Shown: one piece after another, positions 9,815-43,389 of the stretch
Position numbering within the stretch: position 1 is the first letter of the stretch
How the letters are laid out: each line of letters begins with the position of its first letter
Virus record (IMG/VR): IMGVR_UViG_3300025730_000002
Location: 1 to 43,389 of that record
DNA: 43,389 nt
Origin: a virus
Direction: 5' to 3' (one strand)
Translations under genes and position numbers: made by a program
Notes under the pieces: model-generated
Seen by the model: only the letters and a program-made list of their open reading frames with translations
Told to the model about the DNA's origin: nothing
Databases searched by the model: none

Positions 9815-11614
9815 CTACTCTATCCACCTATTTTTTATGCTAATAGATACAGCCAAAATGTCTGTTAGTTTTTTTGGAATGTCCCATAAATAAAAATCTG
9901 TCATAGATTTTTCTATTATATCCCTCATCTTTTTTACTTCACTTTCTTTAACTTCAACGATAAGTTCATCATGAACTTGTATCAAAATTTTGGCATCTAA
10001 TTTATTTTTCTCTATTTCTTTTTGTAGTTGAACCATAGCTATTTTAATTATATCTGCTGCTAATCCCTGGACAGGTGTATTGATAGCTATCCTCTCAGCA
10101 TGCTTTCTTTTTTCTTTATCATTTGAATTAATGTCTTTTATATATCTTATGCGTCCAGTTATTGTTTTTATATACCCAAATGTTTCAGCTTCCAATGCTG
10201 TTTGTTCAGCATAAAGTTTAAGCATAGGATATGTTTTAAAATAATCATCAAGAACTTTCTTGGCAGTTCTTGGATGGCAATTTAATACTTTGCTTAATCC
10301 ACCAGCTCCCATTCCATATAAAACACCAAAATTTACTTTCTTAGCATTCAGCCTTGCTACAACCTTATCTTTTTCATTAGCAAACAAGCTATTCGCAGTC
10401 ATCTGATGAACATCTTCACCATTCTTAAAAGCATTATATAATTTATTCTCTCCTGAAAGAAAGGCTGCAACCATTAATTCTATTTGATTATAATCAGAGA
10501 TAATAAACTTATACCCATCTCTGGCTACAAAGGCTTGCCTTATTTTTCTTCCTTCTTCATCTTTCTTTGGTATGTTTTGCAGATTAGGATTACTGGAAGC
10601 TAATCTTCCAGTGGCTGTAATCATTTGAGAAAAAGTAGTGTGAAGTCTTCCATCCTTTTTGCTTAACTTTTCAGTAAGAGCAGTAGTATAAGTTGAATCA
10701 AGTTTTTTAATTTTTCTATATGTTAATAGCTTTGAAATAATGGGATGATGCCTTTCCAATAATTGTAAGGTTTCATTGTCGGTAGATAACTGCCCCTTAT
10801 TTGTCATTTTTACCTTTGGTAAACCTAAAACTCTGTATAAAATTCTTTGTAATTGTTTTGAAGAATTAATATTAAATTCTTCTTTTGCAAGCAGATAAAT
10901 ATCTTTTTCTAATTGCTTTAATTGTTTTTCAAAATCAGAGTGAAGGTTATTAAGAAAGATAGCATCTAAACCAATACCGTTCCAGGTCATTTCAGCTAAA
11001 ACTTTTTCTAATGGTAATTCAATACACTGATACCAATCATATAAAACACTATTCTTTTTAAGCTCAAAATTTACAAAAGAAAATAGTTCAAGAGTTGCTC
11101 TGGCATCTTTACTTGAATATTCATCTGCCTCATCTATATCTACATTATCAAAAGTTGTTAATCTGTTTTTAATTTTTATTAGCTTCTTTAATTCGTCTTT
11201 TTCTTTTTGATTGATTAGCCCATATTTTTTAGACTGAGCAGCCAAAGAAGTGTCCTGCTCTGGGTCTAAAAGATAAGCTATTAACTTGGTATCTTCATAC
11301 CATTCGTTTACTTCTAAGCCTAACTTCTTAAGCTGTAAATAGTCAAAATAGAAATTGTGAAAAACTTTAATAACATTTTCGCTTATTAAAGGATTACTCA
11401 ATAATGCTTTAATATCTTCAAGAGAATAATTATTTCCTACTTTATGCTTTATAGGTAAATAAACACTTTCTTCTTTTTTAATTCCCCAAGCAAGTGAAAT
11501 ACCTACTACTTCATCATCAAAGTTTAAGCCAGTAGTTTCAGTATCAATAGCAATTATTTTTTGCTTGGAAAGAATTGTTTTTAATGTTTTTAAATTCATT
11601 ATTTTTAATCGCAC
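9815..11614 (-). CDS. Family A (Pol I-type) DNA polymerase with 3'-5' exonuclease domain
   Basis: Exo motifs DTETTGL, HNFYFDY, YSSKDA. Pol motifs A DYNQIELMVAA, B RLNAKKVNFGVLYGMG, C QVHDELIVEV. The track start at 11614 is GTG. ATG at 11599, just after the upstream small ORF stop, is the more likely start. Confidence 0.95.
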   Translation of the reverse strand: MRLKIMNLKTLKTILSKQKIIAIDTETTGLNFDDEVVGISLAWGIKKEESVYLPIKHKVGNNYSLEDIKALLSNPLISENVIKVFHNFYFDYLQLKKLGLEVNEWYEDTKLIAYLLDPEQDTSLAAQSKKYGLINQKEKDELKKLIKIKNRLTTFDNVDIDEADEYSSKDARATLELFSFVNFELKKNSVLYDWYQCIELPLEKVLAEMTWNGIGLDAIFLNNLHSDFEKQLKQLEKDIYLLAKEEFNINSSKQLQRILYRVLGLPKVKMTNKGQLSTDNETLQLLERHHPIISKLLTYRKIKKLDSTYTTALTEKLSKKDGRLHTTFSQMITATGRLASSNPNLQNIPKKDEEGRKIRQAFVARDGYKFIISDYNQIELMVAAFLSGENKLYNAFKNGEDVHQMTANSLFANEKDKVVARLNAKKVNFGVLYGMGAGGLSKVLNCHPRTAKKVLDDYFKTYPMLKLYAEQTALEAETFGYIKTITGRIRYIKDINSNDKEKRKHAERIAINTPVQGLAADIIKIAMVQLQKEIEKNKLDAKILIQVHDELIVEVKESEVKKMRDIIEKSMTDFYLWDIPKKLTDILAVSISIKNRWIE

Positions 11615-16049: not shown

Positions 16050-17624
16050 CTAATATCTATTATACTCTTTTTTATTTAATTTGTCAATAGGTGGAATATA
16101 ATCATACCATTCACCTATAGTCTCAATATTTACCCCCTTTATTTTGTAGTCAATACATTTAAAATTAGGGTTATCTTTAGTTGCCCAATTTTTTGCTTTA
16201 ACAATAGTTAATCTGTCTCTATCCATTGACAAATAAACTCTGGGTTTTTCTAAACCAAAGCTTGCCCCTCTACCCAATAGCTTTGAGCTATCCTTTTGAA
16301 TACCAACTAAACAAATACCTTTATCTAATTTTTCATGTATCTTATTTATCTGCTGTCCTATTTTCCAAAACTCATCTTCTATCTCAAGATAATCTATCAC
16401 ATTTATATCGTTTGGCTTAATAACATCAGCAAAATTATTAGACCTGCAGTAAAAATTTGCTTTCCATTTCGTTTTAAACTGGCTTAATCTAATAGCTAAT
16501 TCTTCTTCAGACATTTCTGAATTGAAATAATGTATCTGATACTTATCCTGATTCATCTTTACAAAATTTAACATGAATAGAGTCTTTCCAACATTTTGAA
16601 CTCCAGCAATAATAATAATATTTTTAGGATAAACAGCAAACTTCTTTTCTAATCCAAATGGAAAAATTAAATCTAATGGTTTTCCAGGCTTTAAAGTATT
16701 AAGATTTATTGGCTCAAGCTCGCTTTCTTTTTTTCGATATGTGGCATTCCACTTTCCATATTTCTCTAAAATACCTTCATCTACCATATCACTTAGAATT
16801 TTAGAAATATTCTTTTTATCAGCAGTAGAAAATACATTTAAATCTTGACAAACATTTCTAAAAGAAAATACACCAGACACATTTTCTACATATTCTCTAA
16901 CCTCTTCAACAAGAGTGCTACCTTTCTCTCCAACTCTCTTTAATGCTGAAGTAATCTTAATTCTCAATGCATCATCTGGGAATGGTGGCTGGCACATATC
17001 AGCATAAGGTTTCAATGCATCATATATTTCATCGTATCTCATCCCACCCTTAGCAAGAACCAATGCTAAATGAAATAGACCAGAATCTCTACCACCAAGC
17101 TTAAGATTGTCTTTTGTGAATCGATACTTATTGCTGTCTTTACTGTTTAAGAACTCAACTAACTTATCTGGAACTTTACTTAGTTTTTCTGGCAATGAAA
17201 TCCAGGCATATTCTTTCCCATTAATTTTAGAAGGTGGTAATAATACATAAGCTCCGTCATTTCTAATGTCTATCTTTAGATTTCTATTAGTGGTTGTTCT
17301 AAGTTCTGGTGTGTAAGAAAAATAAAAATGCTGTCCACCTCTTGGCGTTACAACCAGCCCACACTCATCATCATCAGATAGCATAGAAGTTATCTTATCA
17401 ACAGCCTCTTTACTATCTACATCTATAACCGTTATCCCAGATACTTCACCAGTTATGACACCAACATTACCGTCTTCACCATTATTCTTAATCCACTCAA
17501 GCATTTCTTTTTTTCTTGGCTTTTCGTCCTGATACTGCTTCCATTTTATTGTGCAAACTTTACTGTTTGTGCTAATGGGTATCACTACCCATCCTCTATC
17601 AATATACTTTTTTATCTCTTTCAT
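16050..17624 (-). CDS. Bifunctional primase-polymerase (prim-pol) / P-loop replicative helicase
   Basis: Prim-pol motifs GWVVIPIS, ITVIDVDS, TPRGGQHFYF. A central winged-helix-like segment NISKILSDMVDEGILEKYGKWNATYRK. Walker A AGVQNVGKT in the C-terminal domain. Confidence 0.9.
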   Translation of the reverse strand: MKEIKKYIDRGWVVIPISTNSKVCTIKWKQYQDEKPRKKEMLEWIKNNGEDGNVGVITGEVSGITVIDVDSKEAVDKITSMLSDDDECGLVVTPRGGQHFYFSYTPELRTTTNRNLKIDIRNDGAYVLLPPSKINGKEYAWISLPEKLSKVPDKLVEFLNSKDSNKYRFTKDNLKLGGRDSGLFHLALVLAKGGMRYDEIYDALKPYADMCQPPFPDDALRIKITSALKRVGEKGSTLVEEVREYVENVSGVFSFRNVCQDLNVFSTADKKNISKILSDMVDEGILEKYGKWNATYRKKESELEPINLNTLKPGKPLDLIFPFGLEKKFAVYPKNIIIIAGVQNVGKTLFMLNFVKMNQDKYQIHYFNSEMSEEELAIRLSQFKTKWKANFYCRSNNFADVIKPNDINVIDYLEIEDEFWKIGQQINKIHEKLDKGICLVGIQKDSSKLLGRGASFGLEKPRVYLSMDRDRLTIVKAKNWATKDNPNFKCIDYKIKGVNIETIGEWYDYIPPIDKLNKKEYNRY

Positions 17625-22373: not shown

Positions 22374-22760
22374 TTATCTTATTCCTATCTTTTGTAGTCT
22401 ATTATATAAATTTATTCTTTTTATACACTTTTCTTTACTCCACATTTTCCACATAAAAGGCGGGCAAATATAAGTTCCAAGACATTCAATAGCAAACTCT
22501 TCAGAAAAATACTCTTCAGGACACAATCGCTTAGCTATTCTCCAGGCTAACAGTTCATCAGCAAGTAGTTTGTTAGTGTTTTTATTTTCATCTGTTTCTT
22601 TAGCCTTTAGCTTCTGTCGAGTTATTAAATGTCCGATTTCGTGAAAGAAAGATGAAATCAGTTTTTCTTTTGACATTCCATAGTCAATCCAGATTTCTTT
22701 ATATCTGGTATCAACAAAAGATGTTTCTGGTCTCTCTATGTTTTGTATTACTACAATCAT
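22374..22760 (-). CDS. Minimal HExxH metallopeptidase-like protein (ImmA/IrrE, M78-like), paralog 1
   Basis: FFHEIGHL, then E-LLAW-RIAKRLCP about 25 residues downstream (compare the M78 pattern HExxH...ExxAxxFAxxLLxP). Same length (128 aa) as 24878..25264 and clearly alignable to it. Confidence 0.6.
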   Translation of the reverse strand: MIVVIQNIERPETSFVDTRYKEIWIDYGMSKEKLISSFFHEIGHLITRQKLKAKETDENKNTNKLLADELLAWRIAKRLCPEEYFSEEFAIECLGTYICPPFMWKMWSKEKCIKRINLYNRLQKIGIR

Positions 22761-23668: not shown

Positions 23669-23702
23669 TTTAAATCTCCTTTATTTTTCATTTTATAAGT
23701 CC

Positions 23703-23731
23703 ATTATAGCATATTTTTTATGACTTGTCAA
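23703..23731 (-). promoter_or_regulatory. Consensus sigma70 promoter, leftward early operon
   Basis: The minus strand reads TTGACA-17 nt-TATAAT with TGn extended -10 (ggcTTGACAagtcataaaaaatatgcTATAAT). It lies about 35 nt upstream of ATG 23668. Confidence 0.8.
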
Positions 23732-23766
23732 GCCTTTTTTGGCTTTACAAGCCTTGTTTTGGCTTT
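23729..23766. repeat. Two tandem AAGCC-N6/7-GGCTT mini-hairpin units abutting the -35 of the leftward early promoter
   Basis: CAAGCCTTTTTTGGCTTT (23729-23746) and CAAGCCTTGTTTTGGCTTT (23748-23766). The first overlaps the -35 TTGACA on the opposite strand. Confidence 0.7.
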
Positions 23767-23887
23767 TTATTAATTTTTCTTTTATAATGTTTATCATAGT
23801 TTTTAATCTGCTCACATTGCCTTACTGATTTATTCTGTTTTTCATTATACTAATTATATCATATTTTTATATTTTTGTCTATACTTA

Positions 23888-23910
23888 AATCCTATTAATT
23901 CTATAGGATT
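23888..23910. promoter_or_regulatory. 23-bp palindrome AATCCTAT-N7-ATAGGATT (copy L1)
   Basis: AATCCTATtaattctATAGGATT has perfect 8-bp arms. Confidence 0.8.
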
Positions 23911-23946
23911 AATAATATTTATTAGCATTGTTTTTTATATAGATAA

Positions 23947-23996
23947 ATAAATTATTGTTTCTTTCTTTTATATATAGGAAAGAAACAATAATTTAT
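23947..23996. repeat. Perfect 19-bp inverted repeat (hairpin/cruciform), 12-nt loop
   Basis: ATAAATTATTGTTTCTTTC (23947-23965) is the exact reverse complement of 23978-23996. No flanking T-run is present, so it is not a canonical terminator. Confidence 0.9.
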
Positions 23997-24344
23997 ACTT
24001 TTATACTTATATACCTATATATAGCTATATAGCTATATAAATCAATTCATGCTAACTATATAGCCATATGGCGAACGTTCCAAATACCAGGCGGACATAA
24101 ATTTTTTACTTTTTCTTGAAAAAAAACGTTCTACAATCGCTGTAGAGCCACTAATTCTGTCCGTCCATAGTTAGACTACGTGGAAAAAATCTTTTTTGCT
24201 CTACGAGCTTTTAAACGCTAAAAATGGCAATATGCACAAAAAGTAGTCAGTAAAAAATAGCTAAAAATAGATAGAATGGATAGAAAAAATAGAAAGAGTG
24301 GAAAAAATTAAATCTTTTTTGTTAACGTTAACATTAATTATATT

Positions 24345-24397
24345 AATCCGATAAAATTAGTAAGATTAAAAATAAATCCTATTAAATTAGTCGGATT
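24345..24397. promoter_or_regulatory. Two further copies of the 23-bp palindrome (L2, L3), 30 bp apart, upstream of the rightward early promoter
   Basis: AATCCGATaaaattagTAAGATT (24345-24367, degenerate) and AATCCTATtaaattagTCGGATT (24375-24397). Confidence 0.65.
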
Positions 24398-24448
24398 AAA
24401 TTTTTTGTAAGTTATTGATAATAAATAAGATAAAATTATAAAAAAAGC

Positions 24449-24477
24449 TTGACAAGGATTTTAAAATATGATTAGAT
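24449..24477 (+). promoter_or_regulatory. Sigma70-type promoter, rightward early cassette
   Basis: gcTTGACAaggattttaaaatatgaTTAGAT: perfect -35, 17-nt spacer, TGn plus a 4/6 -10. It lies 22 nt upstream of ATG 24499. Confidence 0.6.
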
Positions 24478-24498
24478 GGTATCATAGGATGGCGGAAA

Positions 24499-24873
24499 AT
24501 GATTCTAACAGTAATACCAAGTAAAGCAGGAATAAGTTACGCTGAAGAAAAAAATAATACTATTTATATTTTTTGTAAGCAAGAAAAATCCGATATGATT
24601 TTAACTTTAAGCCATGAAATAAGCCATTTATTTTTAAAGAAAAGATTTTTTAAAAATGAAGTAATTAATACCTTAGCAATAGAAACTATGGCATGGGTAA
24701 CAGCTAAAAAAATCTGTTTAGATAAATACTGGAATGAAAAAATAGCCATTGAAAAATTAAAAACTTACTTTGATTTTTATAGCTATCAAAAAAATATTTT
24801 TCTAAAGTTGTTTTTAAGATTTTTGTTTTTAGTAAGCAAATTTAAAATATGGTTAGATAATATTATAGGATAA
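24499..24873 (+). CDS. HExxH metallopeptidase-like protein, divergent paralog 2
   Basis: SHEISHLF followed by ETMAWVTAKKIC. First gene after the promoter at 24449-24477. The C-terminal third is hydrophobic and divergent. Confidence 0.5.
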   Translation: MILTVIPSKAGISYAEEKNNTIYIFCKQEKSDMILTLSHEISHLFLKKRFFKNEVINTLAIETMAWVTAKKICLDKYWNEKIAIEKLKTYFDFYSYQKNIFLKLFLRFLFLVSKFKIWLDNIIG

Positions 24874-24877
24874 TAAA

Positions 24878-25264
24878 ATGATTGTTGTTGTTAAATACTC
24901 TTACCAAAAAAATATAGCTTACTCAGACAGACAAACTAACACAATTTATATCGATTACTCAATGTCTAAAAACAATTTTATTAATTGTTTTTATCATGAA
25001 CTAAGCCATTTAATTCTGAAAGAAAAGTTTGATTGCAAATGGTATGATACTATAAAAAATACTAATAGATTAATTGAATCTGAACTGATGGCAAGTCGAA
25101 TTGCTAAAAGGTTATGTCCAGAAAAATATTTTTCAGAAAAATATTTAATAAGCTGTTTACACAGTTATATCTGCCCGCCTGGCATGTGGAAAGCATGGAC
25201 AAAAAGTTTTTGTAAAGAGAGAGTAAGTATTTTTAGAAAAATTAAAAAGATAGGCATAAAATAA
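24878..25264 (+). CDS. Minimal HExxH metallopeptidase-like protein (M78-like), paralog 3
   Basis: YHELSHL, then ELMASRIAKRLCPEKYFSE...YICPPGMWK. Shares MIVV.., IDYxMSK, KNTN, RIAKRLCPE, YICPP, KIGI with 22374..22760. Confidence 0.6.
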   Translation: MIVVVKYSYQKNIAYSDRQTNTIYIDYSMSKNNFINCFYHELSHLILKEKFDCKWYDTIKNTNRLIESELMASRIAKRLCPEKYFSEKYLISCLHSYICPPGMWKAWTKSFCKERVSIFRKIKKIGIK

Positions 25265-25941: not shown

Positions 25942-25952
25942 GGAGTATAAAA

Positions 25953-26216
25953 ATGAAAGACATTAAAGAATTTACACACATTAACCCGCCAAACAATAGC
26001 TGGGAAGAATTAAAGGATAGGCTGGAAATTATAGTTGATAGTTCTGGACTATCTCTGGGTGCTATCACAGTTGCAGAACTGATGAGTGAAATTTGTTATG
26101 AAAAAGCTGACCATTTAAGGGCAAACTGGCAAGATGAGGTCGGAGCTGAAATCTGGGAAAAAGCAGCTGTTATTTTTGAAAAGACAGCTTATAGTTTAAG
26201 GAATTTAATCAGATAG
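25953..26216 (+). CDS. Hypothetical early protein (87 aa)
   Basis: AAGGAG RBS. Confidence 0.6.
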   Translation: MKDIKEFTHINPPNNSWEELKDRLEIIVDSSGLSLGAITVAELMSEICYEKADHLRANWQDEVGAEIWEKAAVIFEKTAYSLRNLIR

Positions 26217-26226
26217 GAGATTAAAA

Positions 26227-26430
26227 ATGAAAGCTTATATTTTATCATCTGAATTTGGAACTGTCCAGATAGGCAGTATAGTTTTTCAACCGCGCAATCA
26301 TGCCAGGTTTAAGGCAATGGATAGAAAAAATTTAAAAGGTTGTCCAGTTGTTAATGTGCCAGATAAGTCAATGACTTCTGCCAGGTTAGCATTATTGTTT
26401 TATGGACTTCAGAAAGCTAATAAATTATAA
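26227..26430 (+). CDS. Hypothetical early protein (67 aa), last gene of the cassette
   Basis: AGGAG RBS. Followed by the strong terminator at 26441-26482. Confidence 0.55.
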   Translation: MKAYILSSEFGTVQIGSIVFQPRNHARFKAMDRKNLKGCPVVNVPDKSMTSARLALLFYGLQKANKL

Positions 26431-26440
26431 GCTAACAGAA

Positions 26441-26482
26441 AAAAGAAAAATAGCCAGGTCTAAAAAACCTGGCTATTTTTTT
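26441..26482. terminator. Bidirectional Rho-independent terminator
   Basis: A 10-bp stem ATAGCCAGGT/ACCTGGCTAT with a 7-nt loop. It is flanked by an A-run (26441-26450) and a T7 run (26476-26482). It lies directly after the last early-cassette gene. Confidence 0.85.
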
Positions 26483-26565
26483 ATATGTCCGTTATTTTTT
26501 AGTATGAAAAAATACAATGTTATTATATCTATATAGCTATATAGATATATAGATATAAAGATATA

Positions 26566-26630
26566 TATATAGCATAGTAATAGATAACATAGTATAGATA
26601 GCATAGTATCTATATAGATAGCATAGTATC
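26566..26630. repeat. Four tandem iterons TAGATA(G/A)CATAGTA (14-20 bp period) in an AT-rich tract
   Basis: tatatAGCATAGTAa / TAGATAACATAGTA / TAGATAGCATAGTATCtata / TAGATAGCATAGTATC. Followed by a 70-bp C/T-only-rich tract (26628-26698). Confidence 0.8.
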
Positions 26631-26695
26631 TTTTTCTTTTTATCTTTCTTTTCTTTCTATTATTAATATCTTTCTTATCTTTCTTTTTTCTTTTT

Positions 26696-26724
26696 ACCAT
26701 TGCTTATTCCTATTTACTTGTCAA
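26696..26724 (-). promoter_or_regulatory. Possible leftward promoter reading into the iteron region
   Basis: The minus strand reads caTTGACAagtaaataggaataagcAATGGT: perfect -35, 17-nt spacer, weak -10. The spacer contains an ATAGGAAT half-site. Confidence 0.35.
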
Positions 26725-26744
26725 TGCTAATAGTTAGCTATGCT

Positions 26745-26960
26745 AACTAATTTTATGCAAGCTCGAATTAATCCTATAGAAATACTAGGATTTAAATCAT
26801 AGTAAAGTATAATATATTAATCCTATAGCTTTACTCGGATTTATTTAAGAGCCAGCTATAATATACATTAATCCTATCGATTTAATAGGAATTAAAAATA
26901 GAGCCAAGCATAATCCAAAGGATATTATATTATTCCTATCAGAATAGTAGGAATTGAAAG
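26745..26960. repeat. Tandem array of four ~50-bp units, each containing the 23-bp palindrome (R1-R4)
   Basis: Palindromes at 26770-26792, 26819-26841, 26870-26893 and 26932-26954, spaced 49, 51 and 62 bp. The inter-palindrome segments are also related (aagAGCCAGCTATAATATAcATT versus tagAGCCAAGCATAAT..). Confidence 0.85.
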
Positions 26961-27097
26961 GGGGCATCACCCGTTGAGGTAAATTTTTTAAAAGCCAGGC
27001 TGAATCATCATCTACACACCTACACTATATTTCTATTGAGAAATTTCAGACTTTAAATGAAATTTCGGTTAAGAAAATCTGGGGGCTGAAGATTAAA

Positions 27098-27285
27098 AGA
27101 CTACTCTTAAGTAGACTACTCATGATAAGTATTCTATACTCGACACTTTTCAAATTTTGCAGTATATGTCGAACATAATTCGACTTTCCTGTTGTAGTCA
27201 ATGTTGTAATTTTCGTGTTGTAGTCTAAATCATCTTCGTGATTTAACGATTTGTTTTGCAAATCGTGATTAGCGGATGTAGTCTA
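27098..27285. repeat. Cluster of TAGACTAC (x2, direct) and GTAGTC(TA) (x3, inverted) motifs with embedded hairpins
   Basis: AGACTAC 27098-27104, TAGACTAC 27112-27119, GTAGTC 27194-27199, GTAGTCTA 27220-27227 and 27278-27285. Hairpins: CTACT-ctta-AGTAG (27101-27114), GTCGAA-cataa-TTCGAC (27168-27184), ACGATTTG-ttttg-CAAATCGT (27246-27266). Confidence 0.8.
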
Positions 27286-27335
27286 ATTCATTTTAGCATG
27301 AATAAATTTTATTCACACTATGAATAAATTGCTAA

Positions 27336-27353
27336 TTAGGAATTAATTCCTAA
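27336..27353. promoter_or_regulatory. 18-bp perfect palindrome TTAGGAATT/AATTCCTAA (same half-sites, arms inverted, no spacer)
   Basis: It lies about 28 bp upstream of the TTGACA at 27381 and about 62 bp upstream of the consensus promoter at 27415. Confidence 0.8.
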
Positions 27354-27414
27354 ATGGTTTAACTAATTTGGGATTTATTCTTGACATAACCTGTAAAAAT
27401 TTGTAAGACACCAC

Positions 27415-27443
27415 TTGACAAAACAAGAAAAATGTGTTATAAT
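27415..27443 (+). promoter_or_regulatory. Consensus sigma70 promoter, lysis block
   Basis: cTTGACAaaacaagaaaaatgtgtTATAAT: perfect -35 and -10, 17-nt spacer, TGn. The downstream ATAGTTATAGTGGGAGA resembles the downstream region of the promoter at 29918. Confidence 0.8.
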
Positions 27444-27662
27444 ATAGTTATAGTGGGAGAAGAGAGTATAAATAAGCATAAGATTAGCTTATGGGAAGTA
27501 ATTCTATTCCTGCTCTTTGCTCTCTGGGCTGGTGGTATGTATTACTTTGCTGTTATTGGTAAGTATTACTCTGATGTTGCTTTAAATATTACTGCTATAA
27601 TTATGGTTTTAACTCTTCTTAGTCTGTATATTCATAACTATAATAAGAGACATAAAAAATAA
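27432..27662 (+). CDS. Small two-TM membrane protein (holin-class candidate); start uncertain
   Basis: Two hydrophobic helices (VILFLLFALWAGGMYYFAVIG and ITAIIMVLTLLSLYI). The track ATG 27432 lies inside the promoter spacer/-10, so the true start must be downstream, for example in-frame GTG 27453. No RBS is visible. Confidence 0.45.
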   Translation: MCYNIVIVGEESINKHKISLWEVILFLLFALWAGGMYYFAVIGKYYSDVALNITAIIMVLTLLSLYIHNYNKRHKK

Positions 27663-42967: not shown

Positions 42968-43389
42968 ATGGCTGTATATGAAGGAACATTAAATAACAGT
43001 ATCGGCGGGCTAATTGCTATGCTTGATACCCAGCTTGTCAAGAACGACAAGTGGTCTATTTACGATGATGCCGCTGGAACTAATTGTCATGTCTATAAAA
43101 ATGATAGCCCAACTGAAAATTCATTGTTCTATCTGAAAGTAGATGACAATTATGTTGGCTATGCAATCATAGAATTATGGGAAGGATGGGATGCTGTAAA
43201 CCATGTTGGAGTAGGCAAGTCGTTAACTAAAGGTTCTGGCGGGACAAATTTGCTATATATCAGAAAAGCTGCTCAAGCTTATAAACTTATGCTGAATAAT
43301 TTAAGATTTATACTGATACAAGTTGGCGTTGCTTTTTCTTCTTATGTTGGACAGCCAAAGCGATTTGATGAATCTAAAAATCAACCGAT
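42968..43389 (+). CDS. Tail-fibre/virion protein, 5' part of a junction-spanning gene (continues at base 128 after collapsing the overlap)
   Basis: ATG at 42968 follows AGGAG (42954-42958). The ORF is open to the window end and in frame with 1..536. The joined gene is 295+536 nt, giving 276 aa. Confidence 0.8.
   Translation, partial: MAVYEGTLNNSIGGLIAMLDTQLVKNDKWSIYDDAAGTNCHVYKNDSPTENSLFYLKVDDNYVGYAIIELWEGWDAVNHVGVGKSLTKGSGGTNLLYIRKAAQAYKLMLNNLRFILIQVGVAFSSYVGQPKRFDESKNQP
43263..43389. repeat. Right copy of 127-bp exact terminal direct repeat
   Basis: Identical to bases 1-127. Confidence 0.95.

Follow-up and report, generated by a model that had tools for sequence, protein, structure and literature searches.

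Four similar palindromes stand head to tail in the non-coding DNA of an uncultured phage, and the question they raise is whether they act as DNA, being sites for a protein, or as RNA, being hairpins in short transcripts. The phage is IMG/VR record IMGVR_UViG_3300025730_000002, whose whole 43,389-nucleotide stretch was analyzed and is called the window here; about 4% of it is non-coding, and two large non-coding gaps, at 23669-24498 and 26431-27431, stand out. The palindromes form an array at 26764-26959, in the second of these gaps. An original prediction had described units composed of a TATAAT-like box, a hairpin and a T-rich tail, and had offered three readings: several copies of an operator or initiator-binding site in a row, small genes for hairpin RNAs that could act as decoys, or an origin. 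The array was confirmed and is not a product of chance; a small clade of uncultured phages retains it, with differing copy numbers. As to its function, the preferred explanation, held tentatively and a little short of probable, is a DNA-level dyad operator array that lies on tandem -35-less promoters, is used by a putative dimeric protein, and stands ahead of the late operon.

The dyad array

The presence of a four-unit tandem array in non-coding DNA was confirmed by a repeat search, which recovered four 34-nt copies with starts at 26764, 26813, 26864 and 26926 (spacings of 49, 51 and 62 bp; 74-76% identity to the reference copy), and by Tandem Repeats Finder (TRF), which reported a period of 49 and 2.9 copies at 26767-26914. 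Every copy holds an inverted repeat of 23-24 bp with the core TCCTA-N9-TAGGA, and there are no open reading frames (ORFs) between the units. The dyads and the -10-like hexamers that alternate with them are as follows.

26770-26792, no strand assigned: dyad R1, AATCCTA-N9-TAGGATT, perfect 7+7
26808-26813, plus strand: -10-like hexamer TATAAT, 17 nt after the R1 right core; R2 begins 5 nt downstream
26819-26841, no strand assigned: dyad R2, AATCCTA-N9-TCGGATT, with a T.C mismatch in the stem
26858-26863, plus strand: -10-like hexamer TATAAT, 18 nt after the R2 right core and preceded by AGAGCCAGC
26870-26893, no strand assigned: dyad R3, AATCCTAT-N7-ATAGGAATT, with a bulged extra A in the right arm
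26909-26914, plus strand: -10-like hexamer CATAAT, 18 nt after the R3 right core and preceded by AGAGCCAAG
26932-26954, no strand assigned: dyad R4, ATTCCTA-N9-TAGGAAT, perfect

The segments between the dyads are homologous to one another, with the form AGAGCC(A)AGC-(C/T)ATAAT. Several features that had been ascribed to all units hold for some of them. A box lies upstream of R2, R3 and R4, but not of R1; GAGCCA occurs in two spacers (26849 and 26901) and is lacking from the other units; and the right arm, said to stand exactly 17 nt before the next box, does so after R1, whereas the distance is 18 nt after R2 and R3. Perfect dyads are found in R1 and R4 only, and it is these two that offer the perfect stems expected of a hairpin in each unit, R2 being mismatched and R3 bulged. 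The T-rich tail is not a feature of all units, for the tails after R3 and R4 are A-rich.

The distance between dyad and hexamer is not peculiar to the window. The homologous region was recovered from seven contigs of related phages (given L numbers here), and in all eight of the distinct unit types that have a downstream hexamer, taken from the window, L019/L029, L003 and L065, the right core TAGGA or TCGGA lies 17-18 nt upstream of (C/T)ATAnT. The hexamers read TATAAT, CATAAT, CATATT, CATAGT and CATAAA, the last of these also readable as TAAACT two bases on. The gap is constant while the spacer sequence changes, for example AGAGCCAGC as against AGAGAGAAAG or AGAGCAGAC. A sigma-70 promoter has its -35 and -10 elements 17-18 nt apart as well, so the dyad centre would fall near -40, and since the next dyad begins 5-17 nt after the hexamer, it would cover the predicted +1. 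Judged by its letters, the array can be described as what appear to be three tandem promoters, each presumably weak alone and each overlaid by a dyad, which is the anatomy of factor-controlled promoters.

Copies of the dyad outside the array

The strict motif TCC[TG]A-N9-T[AC]GGA occurs six times genome-wide, in every case inside the two large non-coding gaps, and at a spacing of 9 exclusively, with no occurrence for spacers of 3-8 or 10-15 nt. The expected number of copies is 0.08 in dinucleotide-preserving shuffles of the whole genome and 0.005 in shuffled non-coding gaps, and the array is far beyond chance. Sites A, B and C, listed below together with a related palindrome, are further copies that the original prediction did not include.

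23888-23910, no strand assigned: site A, perfect dyad AATCCTAT-N7-ATAGGATT, an inverted copy of R1 (27/29 identical)
24345-24367, no strand assigned: site B, a degenerate dyad
24375-24397, no strand assigned: site C, a dyad with one mismatch
27337-27352, no strand assigned: spacer-less palindrome TAGGAATTAATTCCTA, a perfect 16 bp with the same half-site and the arms swapped

The gap at 23669-24498 holds divergent early promoters, and the dyads there lie upstream of them. Site A is directly upstream of the leftward promoter TAGACA-17-TATAAT (23881-23853), abutting its -35, and sites B and C are about 60-100 bp upstream of the rightward TTGACA at 24449; the dyad is found in both orientations. 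The TAGGAATTAATTCCTA palindrome lies some 100 bp upstream of the late promoter and is kept in all relatives.

How the dyads may act

The half-sites are inverted at fixed spacing, enriched in regulatory DNA, and placed on promoter elements, as in an operator array. Of the three readings first offered, the multi-copy operator or initiator-binding array fits best, given the fixed N9, the occurrence in both orientations, the copies at early promoters, and the replacement of the array by other repeats in a distant relative (below). The 23-bp dyads, four in the window and three to five in relatives, would be bound by a dimeric, sequence-specific protein that could be phage- or host-encoded, and their occupancy would switch a bank of about three tandem rightward promoters facing the late (lysis-packaging-structural) operon. 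Occupancy might repress, the -35 and +1 being blocked, or it might activate in the class-II manner from about -40. The dyads of the divergent early promoters may be served by this protein as well, and early expression would then be coupled to late. Protein binding, the identity of the protein, and the sign of the regulation are matters of inference.

Several findings weigh against this explanation. As the original prediction had rightly cautioned, the hexamers have neither a TGn nor a usable -35 (CTAGGA and CTCGGA, each 2/6), and the promoter scan calls none of them; the array also stands about 500 bp from the strong late promoter. Among close relatives, the arms take substitutions no less often than the loops, so single sites are weakly constrained. 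Two columns that covary in an alignment of units (below), with a double change, T-A to G-C, in the ortholog of R4 among their events, would also fit selection for pairing, and one unit of L003 has 18 nt rather than 9 between its cores and a stem extended by TTAA/TTAA, an arrangement that breaks the fixed dimer geometry and keeps the hairpin potential. Further, Pfam and PHROGs searches of 58 ORFs of the window and relatives revealed no DNA-binding family (helix-turn-helix (HTH), ribbon-helix-helix (RHH) or winged HTH (wHTH)) in the early ORFs of the window, L019, L065 and L067, although most early ORFs are orphans, so that the lack of a match does not mean the lack of a protein. The product of a 67-aa gene just upstream of the terminator that closes the early operon, p67, is 81% conserved in L065 and absent at that position in L019; it has five homologues, and its AlphaFold2 (AF2) model (predicted local distance difference test (pLDDT) of 77) has no fold match in the PDB. 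The absence of a recognized binding protein is the main weakness of the favored explanation.

One rejected candidate concerns promoters on the array itself. A leftward promoter on the left arm of R1 (TAGGA-16 nt-TAAAAT, 26752-26747) is found in the clade of the window and is absent in L003 and L065. Separately, the right arms, (A/C)TAGGA(A/T)TT at 26786-26794, 26886-26894 and others, match what we take to be the -35 consensus of Bacillus sigma-H, RWAGGAXXT; GAAT, part of the sigma-H -10, is missing from the downstream hexamers, the spacing exceeds the fitting one by 1-2 nt, and the likeness is a lead only.

Conservation and turnover among relatives

That related phages should carry the array was borne out, with three to five units in relatives down to 85% TerL identity. 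Near-identical relatives have four units (L009, L018 and L019) or five (L029); in L019, R1 is lost and a unit Rx is gained between R3 and R4. The scaffold L021 has a run of N across the array. L003 and L065, at 85% TerL identity, have three units each. In L067-L069, with TerL at 63%, the gene order, a 0.85-kb gap and a conserved motif downstream of the array (GGCATCACCCG-N39-CTACACATCTAC) are kept, and there is no TCCTA dyad. Three 19-bp direct repeats, along with additional CCGGTT/AACCGGTT sites, take the place of the array in its slot, which is bounded by the last gene of the early operon and by the conserved GGCATCACCCG...CTACACAYCTAC motif. What is conserved at this place is therefore an array of short repeated sites, rather than the ability to form hairpins. 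L072 and L073 (TerL 49-55%) were too divergent or too short for use, and the P0017 contigs are without the upstream region. IMG/VR scans for the flanking conserved motif found L003 and one chance match only, and the one metagenome scan gave a single near-identical contig, L009.

Individual sites change among relatives. The right arm of R1 reads TAAGATT, with a pair-breaking G to A, in three close relatives, and the T.C mismatch of R2 persists throughout the relatives, V1, its ortholog in L065, among them. The ortholog of R4 in L065 is ATTCCGA/TCGGAAT, with both arms changed. In the same contig the right arm of site A is destroyed, and site C is a perfect AATCCGA/TCGGATT. R3 and V1 are hybrid units that look recombinant.

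Turnover of this kind could also arise without a dedicated protein, the units being passive promoter-plus-stem-loop cassettes that unequal recombination left behind or amplified in a hyper-plastic region, with the palindrome acting at most as a weak attenuator, an RNA 5' or 3' stabilizer, or a recombination hot spot. Cassettes of promoter and stem-loop that mediate shuffling are documented in T4-like phages as promoter-early-stem-loops (PeSLs) (PMC2839356, PMC4122927). Copy number that varies among near-identical relatives (four; four with one lost and one gained; five), the recombinant-looking R3 and V1, differing genes upstream of the terminator, and small perfect palindromes that appear and vanish as indels across the 1-kb region would all be at home in this explanation. 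It is nonetheless rather unlikely. No ORFs separate the units, their promoters consist of a -10 alone and not of the full consensus, the AT-rich stems are weak as compared with the G/C-rich, terminator-grade stem-loops of PeSLs (PMC2839356), and the core and N9 are kept even though the loops have fully diverged.

DNA site or RNA hairpin

Twenty distinct units were aligned in one register and their pairs counted. In this alignment 81% of the cells pair and two columns covary: 3-23 (A-U 9, U-A 9, other 2) and 7-19 (U-A 13, G-C 2, other 5). The covariation score, 0.175 as against 0.113 in shuffles, was matched by 3 of 500 shuffles and is a signal that kinship alone can yield. Its clearest event is the R4 ortholog of L065, ATTCCGA/TCGGAAT in place of the ATTCCTA/TAGGAAT of the window. 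The paired stem changes stressed by the original prediction are thus present in two columns, but they are thin, and a DNA dyad predicts the same symmetry. The comparison of stem covariation with half-site conservation in aligned relatives, which that prediction had proposed, gave these two covarying columns, yet also the R2 mismatch kept in all and R1 broken in three. The covariation and the extended L003 stem would favor selection for dyad symmetry, or a mutational bias such as template switching. Half-sites TCCTA and TCCGA occur in all combinations (T/T, T/G and G/G), and in our own reading of the 20-unit alignment wobble-compatible changes show no strand preference. The core TCCTA...TAGGA and the N9 are kept in units whose loops have diverged completely, which points to apparent sequence-specific selection.

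As RNA, the units fold weakly, at -2.3 to -7.6 kcal/mol with z-scores of -0.2 to -2.4 and two G-C pairs per stem. A terminator scan found none inside 26760-26960, and downstream of R4, where a small RNA or a terminator was considered, folding does not surpass that of shuffles. Rho-independent terminators were rejected as an identity for the units, with their weak stems of two G-C pairs that fold at -2.3 to -6.7 kcal/mol, the A-rich tails of R3 and R4, and no call by the scan. Rfam (release 15), whose library presumably includes the CRISPR-DR families, has no match to the array at E<=10 or at the gathering score. Searches for tRNA and tmRNA in the array region were negative. A 41-aa ORF on the minus strand (26845-26970) was considered as a micro-ORF and rejected, being truncated in L065, as read by eye, and having no ribosome-binding site.

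These results bear on the proposal that the units are hairpin-RNA mini-genes, in which each -10 box would drive a short decoy transcript, either an RNA anti-CRISPR (CRISPR being short palindromic repeats that are clustered and regularly interspaced) or a type III pseudo-antitoxin. The predicted start sites at the left edge of each dyad would suit such transcripts, as would the two-arm changes that maintain symmetry in two columns and the L003 unit that enlarges its loop and extends its stem; viral solitary repeats are typically found just downstream of a promoter (PMC10651486). Such a unit would have a promoter within some 250 bp upstream; what lies 5-17 nt upstream of R2-R4 is a -10-like hexamer. 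The proposal nevertheless seems improbable and is unsupported. The boxes lack a -35 and TGn and are uncalled, no terminator follows any unit, the folds are weak, with the R2 mismatch present in all relatives and the G to A change of R1 in three, and Rfam is silent at E<=10. The segments between the dyads are homologous and so are not spacers, the units are of unequal length and about 75% identical, there is no toxin gene downstream, the copies lie in both orientations, and site A is upstream, not downstream, of a promoter.

A sharper form, in which the array would be a diversified battery of RNA anti-CRISPRs whose hairpins mimic a type I-B/III-like host repeat, with R4 ending in a ATTGAAAG handle, and soak up Cas6 or effector subunits, is very improbable. 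Its particular attraction is the tail of R4, ...TAGGAATTGAAAG, which ends in ATTGAAAG, a string that we take to be itself the CRISPR RNA (crRNA) tag. In a string search of the literature, repeats ending ...AGGAATTGAAAC/G were found for type I-B/III systems of Clostridium thermocellum, Weizmannia coagulans and Sulfolobus, and repeats ending ...AGGAATTGAAAG/C are tabulated with the 8-nt processed tag listed (PMC3737339, PMC8954581). In relatives, however, the ATTGAAAG tail reads GATAG, GAGAG or AAGGGG. The similarity to host CRISPR repeats that had been suggested did not materialize: an exact scan for the 20-base ATTCCTA-N9-TAGGAATTGAAAG in one genome each of 185,579 species, which would miss a diverged repeat, gave five single matches, ascribed to chance, and no CRISPR array. 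Four of the five are coding (a repeated N-terminal stretch, and MATE-type transporter genes as read), and one is an intergenic dyad (L035).

The last of these, ATTCCTA-N9-TAGGAAT, lies just upstream of a gene whose product was taken, by eye, for an Rrf2-type regulator; if it is the operator of that gene, proteins may use a 7-N9-7 architecture. A scan of IMG/VR for two tandem TCCTA-N9-TAGGA sites returned mostly coding repeats, apparently leucine-rich or collagen-like, and a few unrelated phage palindromes.

Two further identities were set aside. A CRISPR array or mini-array does not agree with repeats that are 74-76% identical, homologous inter-dyad segments, and periods of 49, 51 and 62 bp. 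A type III antitoxin (ToxI-like), or a mimic of one, was rejected on the unequal units, the identity of about 75%, the absence of a terminator after R4, and the absence of a toxN-type gene next to the array.

The surrounding control region

The array is one part of a non-coding control region of about 1 kb, in which a terminator, AT-rich repeats, a (TTTC)n tract, a short hairpin, the array, a bipartite motif, some 400 bp of palindromes and repeats, and the late promoter follow one another. The region is better conserved than the neighboring proteins, and no ORF in 26431-27431 is conserved in relatives. Its principal features, beside the array, are these.

26446-26480, no strand assigned: bidirectional intrinsic terminator with a 16-bp stem between an A-run and a T-run; closes the small-gene (early) operon
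26520-26631, no strand assigned: AT-rich block of TATATAGA (8-bp) and ATAGCATAGTAT repeats; its length differs among relatives
26632-26700, plus strand: polypyrimidine (TTTC)n tract, from repeat searches
26731-26749: short hairpin between the (TTTC)n tract and the array
26963-27023, plus strand: bipartite motif GGCATCACCCG-N38-CTACACACCTAC, directly after the array, conserved
27415-27443, plus strand: sigma-70-type promoter TTGACA-17-(TGt)TATAAT, 12/12 plus TG, conserved in relatives

The terminator forms the left border of the region and accounts for its sole Rfam matches at E<=10, which are terminator parts of leader or small RNA (sRNA) models. The promoter at 27415-27443 drives the lysis/packaging/structural operon and forms the right border. 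A block resembling 26520-26631 is also found at 23994-24039.

The make-up of this region bears on the third reading first offered, an origin of replication, in which the dyads would be initiator iterons, the AT-rich TATA/ATAG repeats and the (TTTC)n tract an unwinding or priming region, and the 23.9-24.4 kb copies an additional origin or an operator for auto-regulation. The dyads, four to five in number and phased, adjoin the 110-bp AT-rich block and the 70-nt polypyrimidine tract, which lie 70-250 bp upstream of the dyads; three motif classes, namely the dyad, the TATAGCTATATAG repeats and the TAGACTAC motif, are common to both gaps; the slot of the L067-type relative holds iteron-like 19-bp direct repeats; and the phage, having genes for a primase-helicase and for DNA polymerase A, requires a start site in cis. 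The cumulative GC-skew minimum, however, is at 24166 and the curve is flat over 26500-27250, a comparison clouded by the reversal of transcription at 24 kb. There is no enrichment of DnaA boxes, no initiator-like gene was recognized in the Pfam and PHROGs searches, and an origin alone does not explain the constant 17-18-nt link to a -10-like hexamer. An origin, which would be a special case of DNA-level action and for which the AT-rich neighbor and the iteron-like dyads do speak, is on this evidence doubtful, yet it is the chief competitor of the operator explanation. A T7-type, transcription-primed origin would reconcile the promoter geometry with such a role.

Another possible start site for replication lies in the early-promoter gap. 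At 23948-23995 there is an inverted repeat with a 20-bp stem, TAAATTATTGTTTCTTTC...GAAAGAAACAATAATTTA, in the divergent promoter region beside TATA repeats and close to the GC-skew minimum (24166); L065 has a counterpart with an altered stem. This inverted repeat is a candidate origin or bidirectional terminator.

The bipartite motif is found at 26963-27023 in the window, 229-290 in L003, about 5795-5860 in L065, and 5757-5818 in L067. The sequence GGCATCACCCG-N38/39-CTACACAYCTAC and its spacing are kept to 63% TerL identity, with unrelated sequence between and around the two parts, and its folding is no better than that of shuffles. The motif may bind a protein, mark a terminus or serve in priming. 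Placed as it is, strongly conserved and directly beside a lineage-variable repeat array, it also suggests a packaging site, in which the dyads would be cosB- or pacL-like sites for the small terminase beside a cleavage or terminus motif, GGCATCACCCG...CTACACACCTAC. A conserved cosN beside a specificity-determining cosB is a resembling arrangement, and the region is upstream of the lysis-terS-terL block. Yet the array is 3.1 kb from terS, where phages with T4-type Terminase_6C/Terminase_2-type terminases usually have pac in or next to terS, and the dyad occurs at early promoters as well; the circular assembly, with its 127-bp overlap elsewhere, is uninformative on termini. Packaging is the least probable of the functions considered, and highly unlikely.

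Other elements of the control region vary or recur. A block at 27140-27190, kept in all relatives, contains the TCGAC-type elements CTCGACA, TGTCGAA and TTCGACT (GTCGAACATAATTCGAC at 27168-27184). TGTCGAA is what we take to be the Spo0A-box consensus, and if it is a Spo0A box, the phage may infect a spore-forming host, to whose state the region may respond as in phi29. Repeats of TGTTGTAGTC(A/T)A (27190-27290 in the window, 1065-1180 in L029) differ in copy number among relatives. Copies of TAGACTAC/GTAGTCTA are found in both gaps, at 24172, 27112, 27220 and 27278; GTAGTCTAAATC equals, in reverse complement, what we take to be the 5' end of the Cas13a repeat of Leptotrichia wadei, probably by chance.

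Small perfect palindromes are gained or lost as indels among relatives (27352/27353 and 27060-27300, e.g. GTGATTCGATATTCGAATCAC and GTGGTCTATACTTAGACCAC, in comparison with L003, L018, L019, L029 and L065), and hairpin-sized modules seem to be gained and lost as whole units. The genes upstream of the early-operon terminator (25950-26430) vary too, with the 67-aa gene in the window and L029 and an unrelated 184-aa gene in L009, L019 and L021. These differences, between phages otherwise near-identical, stop at the terminator, where the non-coding region begins without change, and they suggest that the early region is plastic. In its early-promoter gap (2808-2921), L067 has a repeat family of its own, AATCCAAAAAWTTG, including the palindrome ATCCAAAAATTTGGAT; it has the outer ATCC...GGAT in common with the dyad of the window, whereas the inner part and the spacing differ.

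Comparison with known systems

The lambdoid operators OR1-3 and OL1-3, and multi-operator switches like them, have several dyads in a row over promoter elements and more copies at a second control region a few kb away, as is found here. The present units, however, are 49-62 bp apart rather than about 24 bp, their half-sites are 7-N9-7 rather than compact 17-bp sites, each unit has its own -10-like box, and there is no adjacent repressor gene that was recognized. In class II, -35-less, activator-dependent promoters, such as the Mor- and C-dependent middle and late promoters of phage Mu, a dyad about 40 bp upstream of the start replaces the -35 and lies 17-18 bp from the -10. The dyads described here take the same place at the same distance, as far as sequence can tell, but the units are head to tail, with each dyad also over the +1 of the preceding unit, and no activator homologue was found.

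The p4 protein of phi29 has about four inverted-repeat sites with a long central spacer in an early/late control region, flanking divergent promoters within about 220 bp. The likeness lies in a phage without recognized lysogeny genes and in about four inverted repeats in a non-coding early/late region; the site sequence and spacer are different here, the array is about 500 bp from the late promoter, and no p4-like protein was detected. The lambda origin has four dyad-symmetric, O-binding iterons next to an AT-rich region, spaced about 24 bp apart and inside the initiator gene. Four sites, dyad symmetry and an AT-rich neighboring block are again in common, but the array is not in an initiator gene, its spacing is 50 bp, no O-like initiator was found, and the GC-skew minimum is elsewhere.

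Two known systems were pertinent to action through RNA or by passive spread. PeSLs of T4-like phages (PMC2839356, PMC4122927) are also repeated promoter-plus-stem-loop units in a plastic early region with polymorphic copy number and content, but they have consensus promoters and strong, G/C-rich terminator stems, and each precedes an ORF, whereas the units here are -10-only, weak and AT-rich, with no ORFs. RNA anti-CRISPRs, or solitary repeat units (PMC10651486), are likewise short, hairpin-capable repeats in phage non-coding DNA close to a promoter-like box; the array differs in that no similarity to CRISPR repeats was found, the units are multi-copy and divergent, mismatches are tolerated, and the handle-like tail is not conserved.

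Genome and lineage of the phage

The window is a circularly assembled phage genome, bases 1-127 being identical to 43263-43389 (the 127-bp overlap), with a GC content of 32%. Replication genes and a methyltransferase gene are on the minus strand.

9815-11614, minus strand: DNA polymerase A, a replication gene
16050-17624, minus strand: primase-polymerase/helicase, a replication gene

On the plus strand are genes resembling those of holin, spanin and endolysin, the genes of TerS and TerL, and those of the portal, the capsid and internal virion proteins; the ORFs next after the array encode small membrane, holin-like and spanin-like proteins. TerL matches the T4-type Terminase_6C family and TerS matches Terminase_2, and relatives have SU10-type adaptor and P22-type portal domains. 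Pfam and PHROGs searches of the window and relatives recognized no integrase, repressor, RNA polymerase or sigma factor, and the absence of a recognized integrase or repressor family suggests a virulent phage. The array region has no match in a nucleotide search of 50,697 phage records, the closest TerL among sequenced phages is 26% identical, and the early genes are almost all orphans; this is a lineage without a cultured relative. Consensus TTGACA-17-TGnTATAAT promoters are present by promoter scan and GGAG-type ribosome-binding sites by eye, and the host is therefore taken to be a bacterium with sigma-70/sigma-A machinery.

Some neighboring genes are of interest in their own right. Three small paralogues (24499-24873, 24878-25264 and 22374-22760) have weak matches to the M78/ImmA-IrrE-like metallopeptidase family and flank the divergent promoters on both sides; a partner HTH repressor was not detected. 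The first late gene begins with ATA in the window (27467-27469) and with ATG in L009, L018 and L029, all with a common GGGAGAAGAGAG ribosome-binding site. In L020-L024 an extra Dam-like methyltransferase gene (MethyltransfD12) lies between the spanin-region genes and the endolysin (about 1500-2500 in each), and the window is without it (compare 29180).

Significance

What was obtained here is a motif, its non-random distribution, a fixed geometry, a pattern of conservation and turnover, and the absence of RNA-gene features. Arrays of TATAAT box, hairpin and tail in phage non-coding DNA call for a DNA-level explanation to be excluded before they are called RNA decoys. If the dyads are indeed binding sites, the finding would be useful rather than surprising, a familiar kind of phage cis-element in a new form. 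The dyad sites would offer a direct bait for the regulator by DNA-affinity methods, and a bank of dyads on -35-less promoters, if true, would be the first handle on the timing of late genes, or the start of replication, in this lineage.

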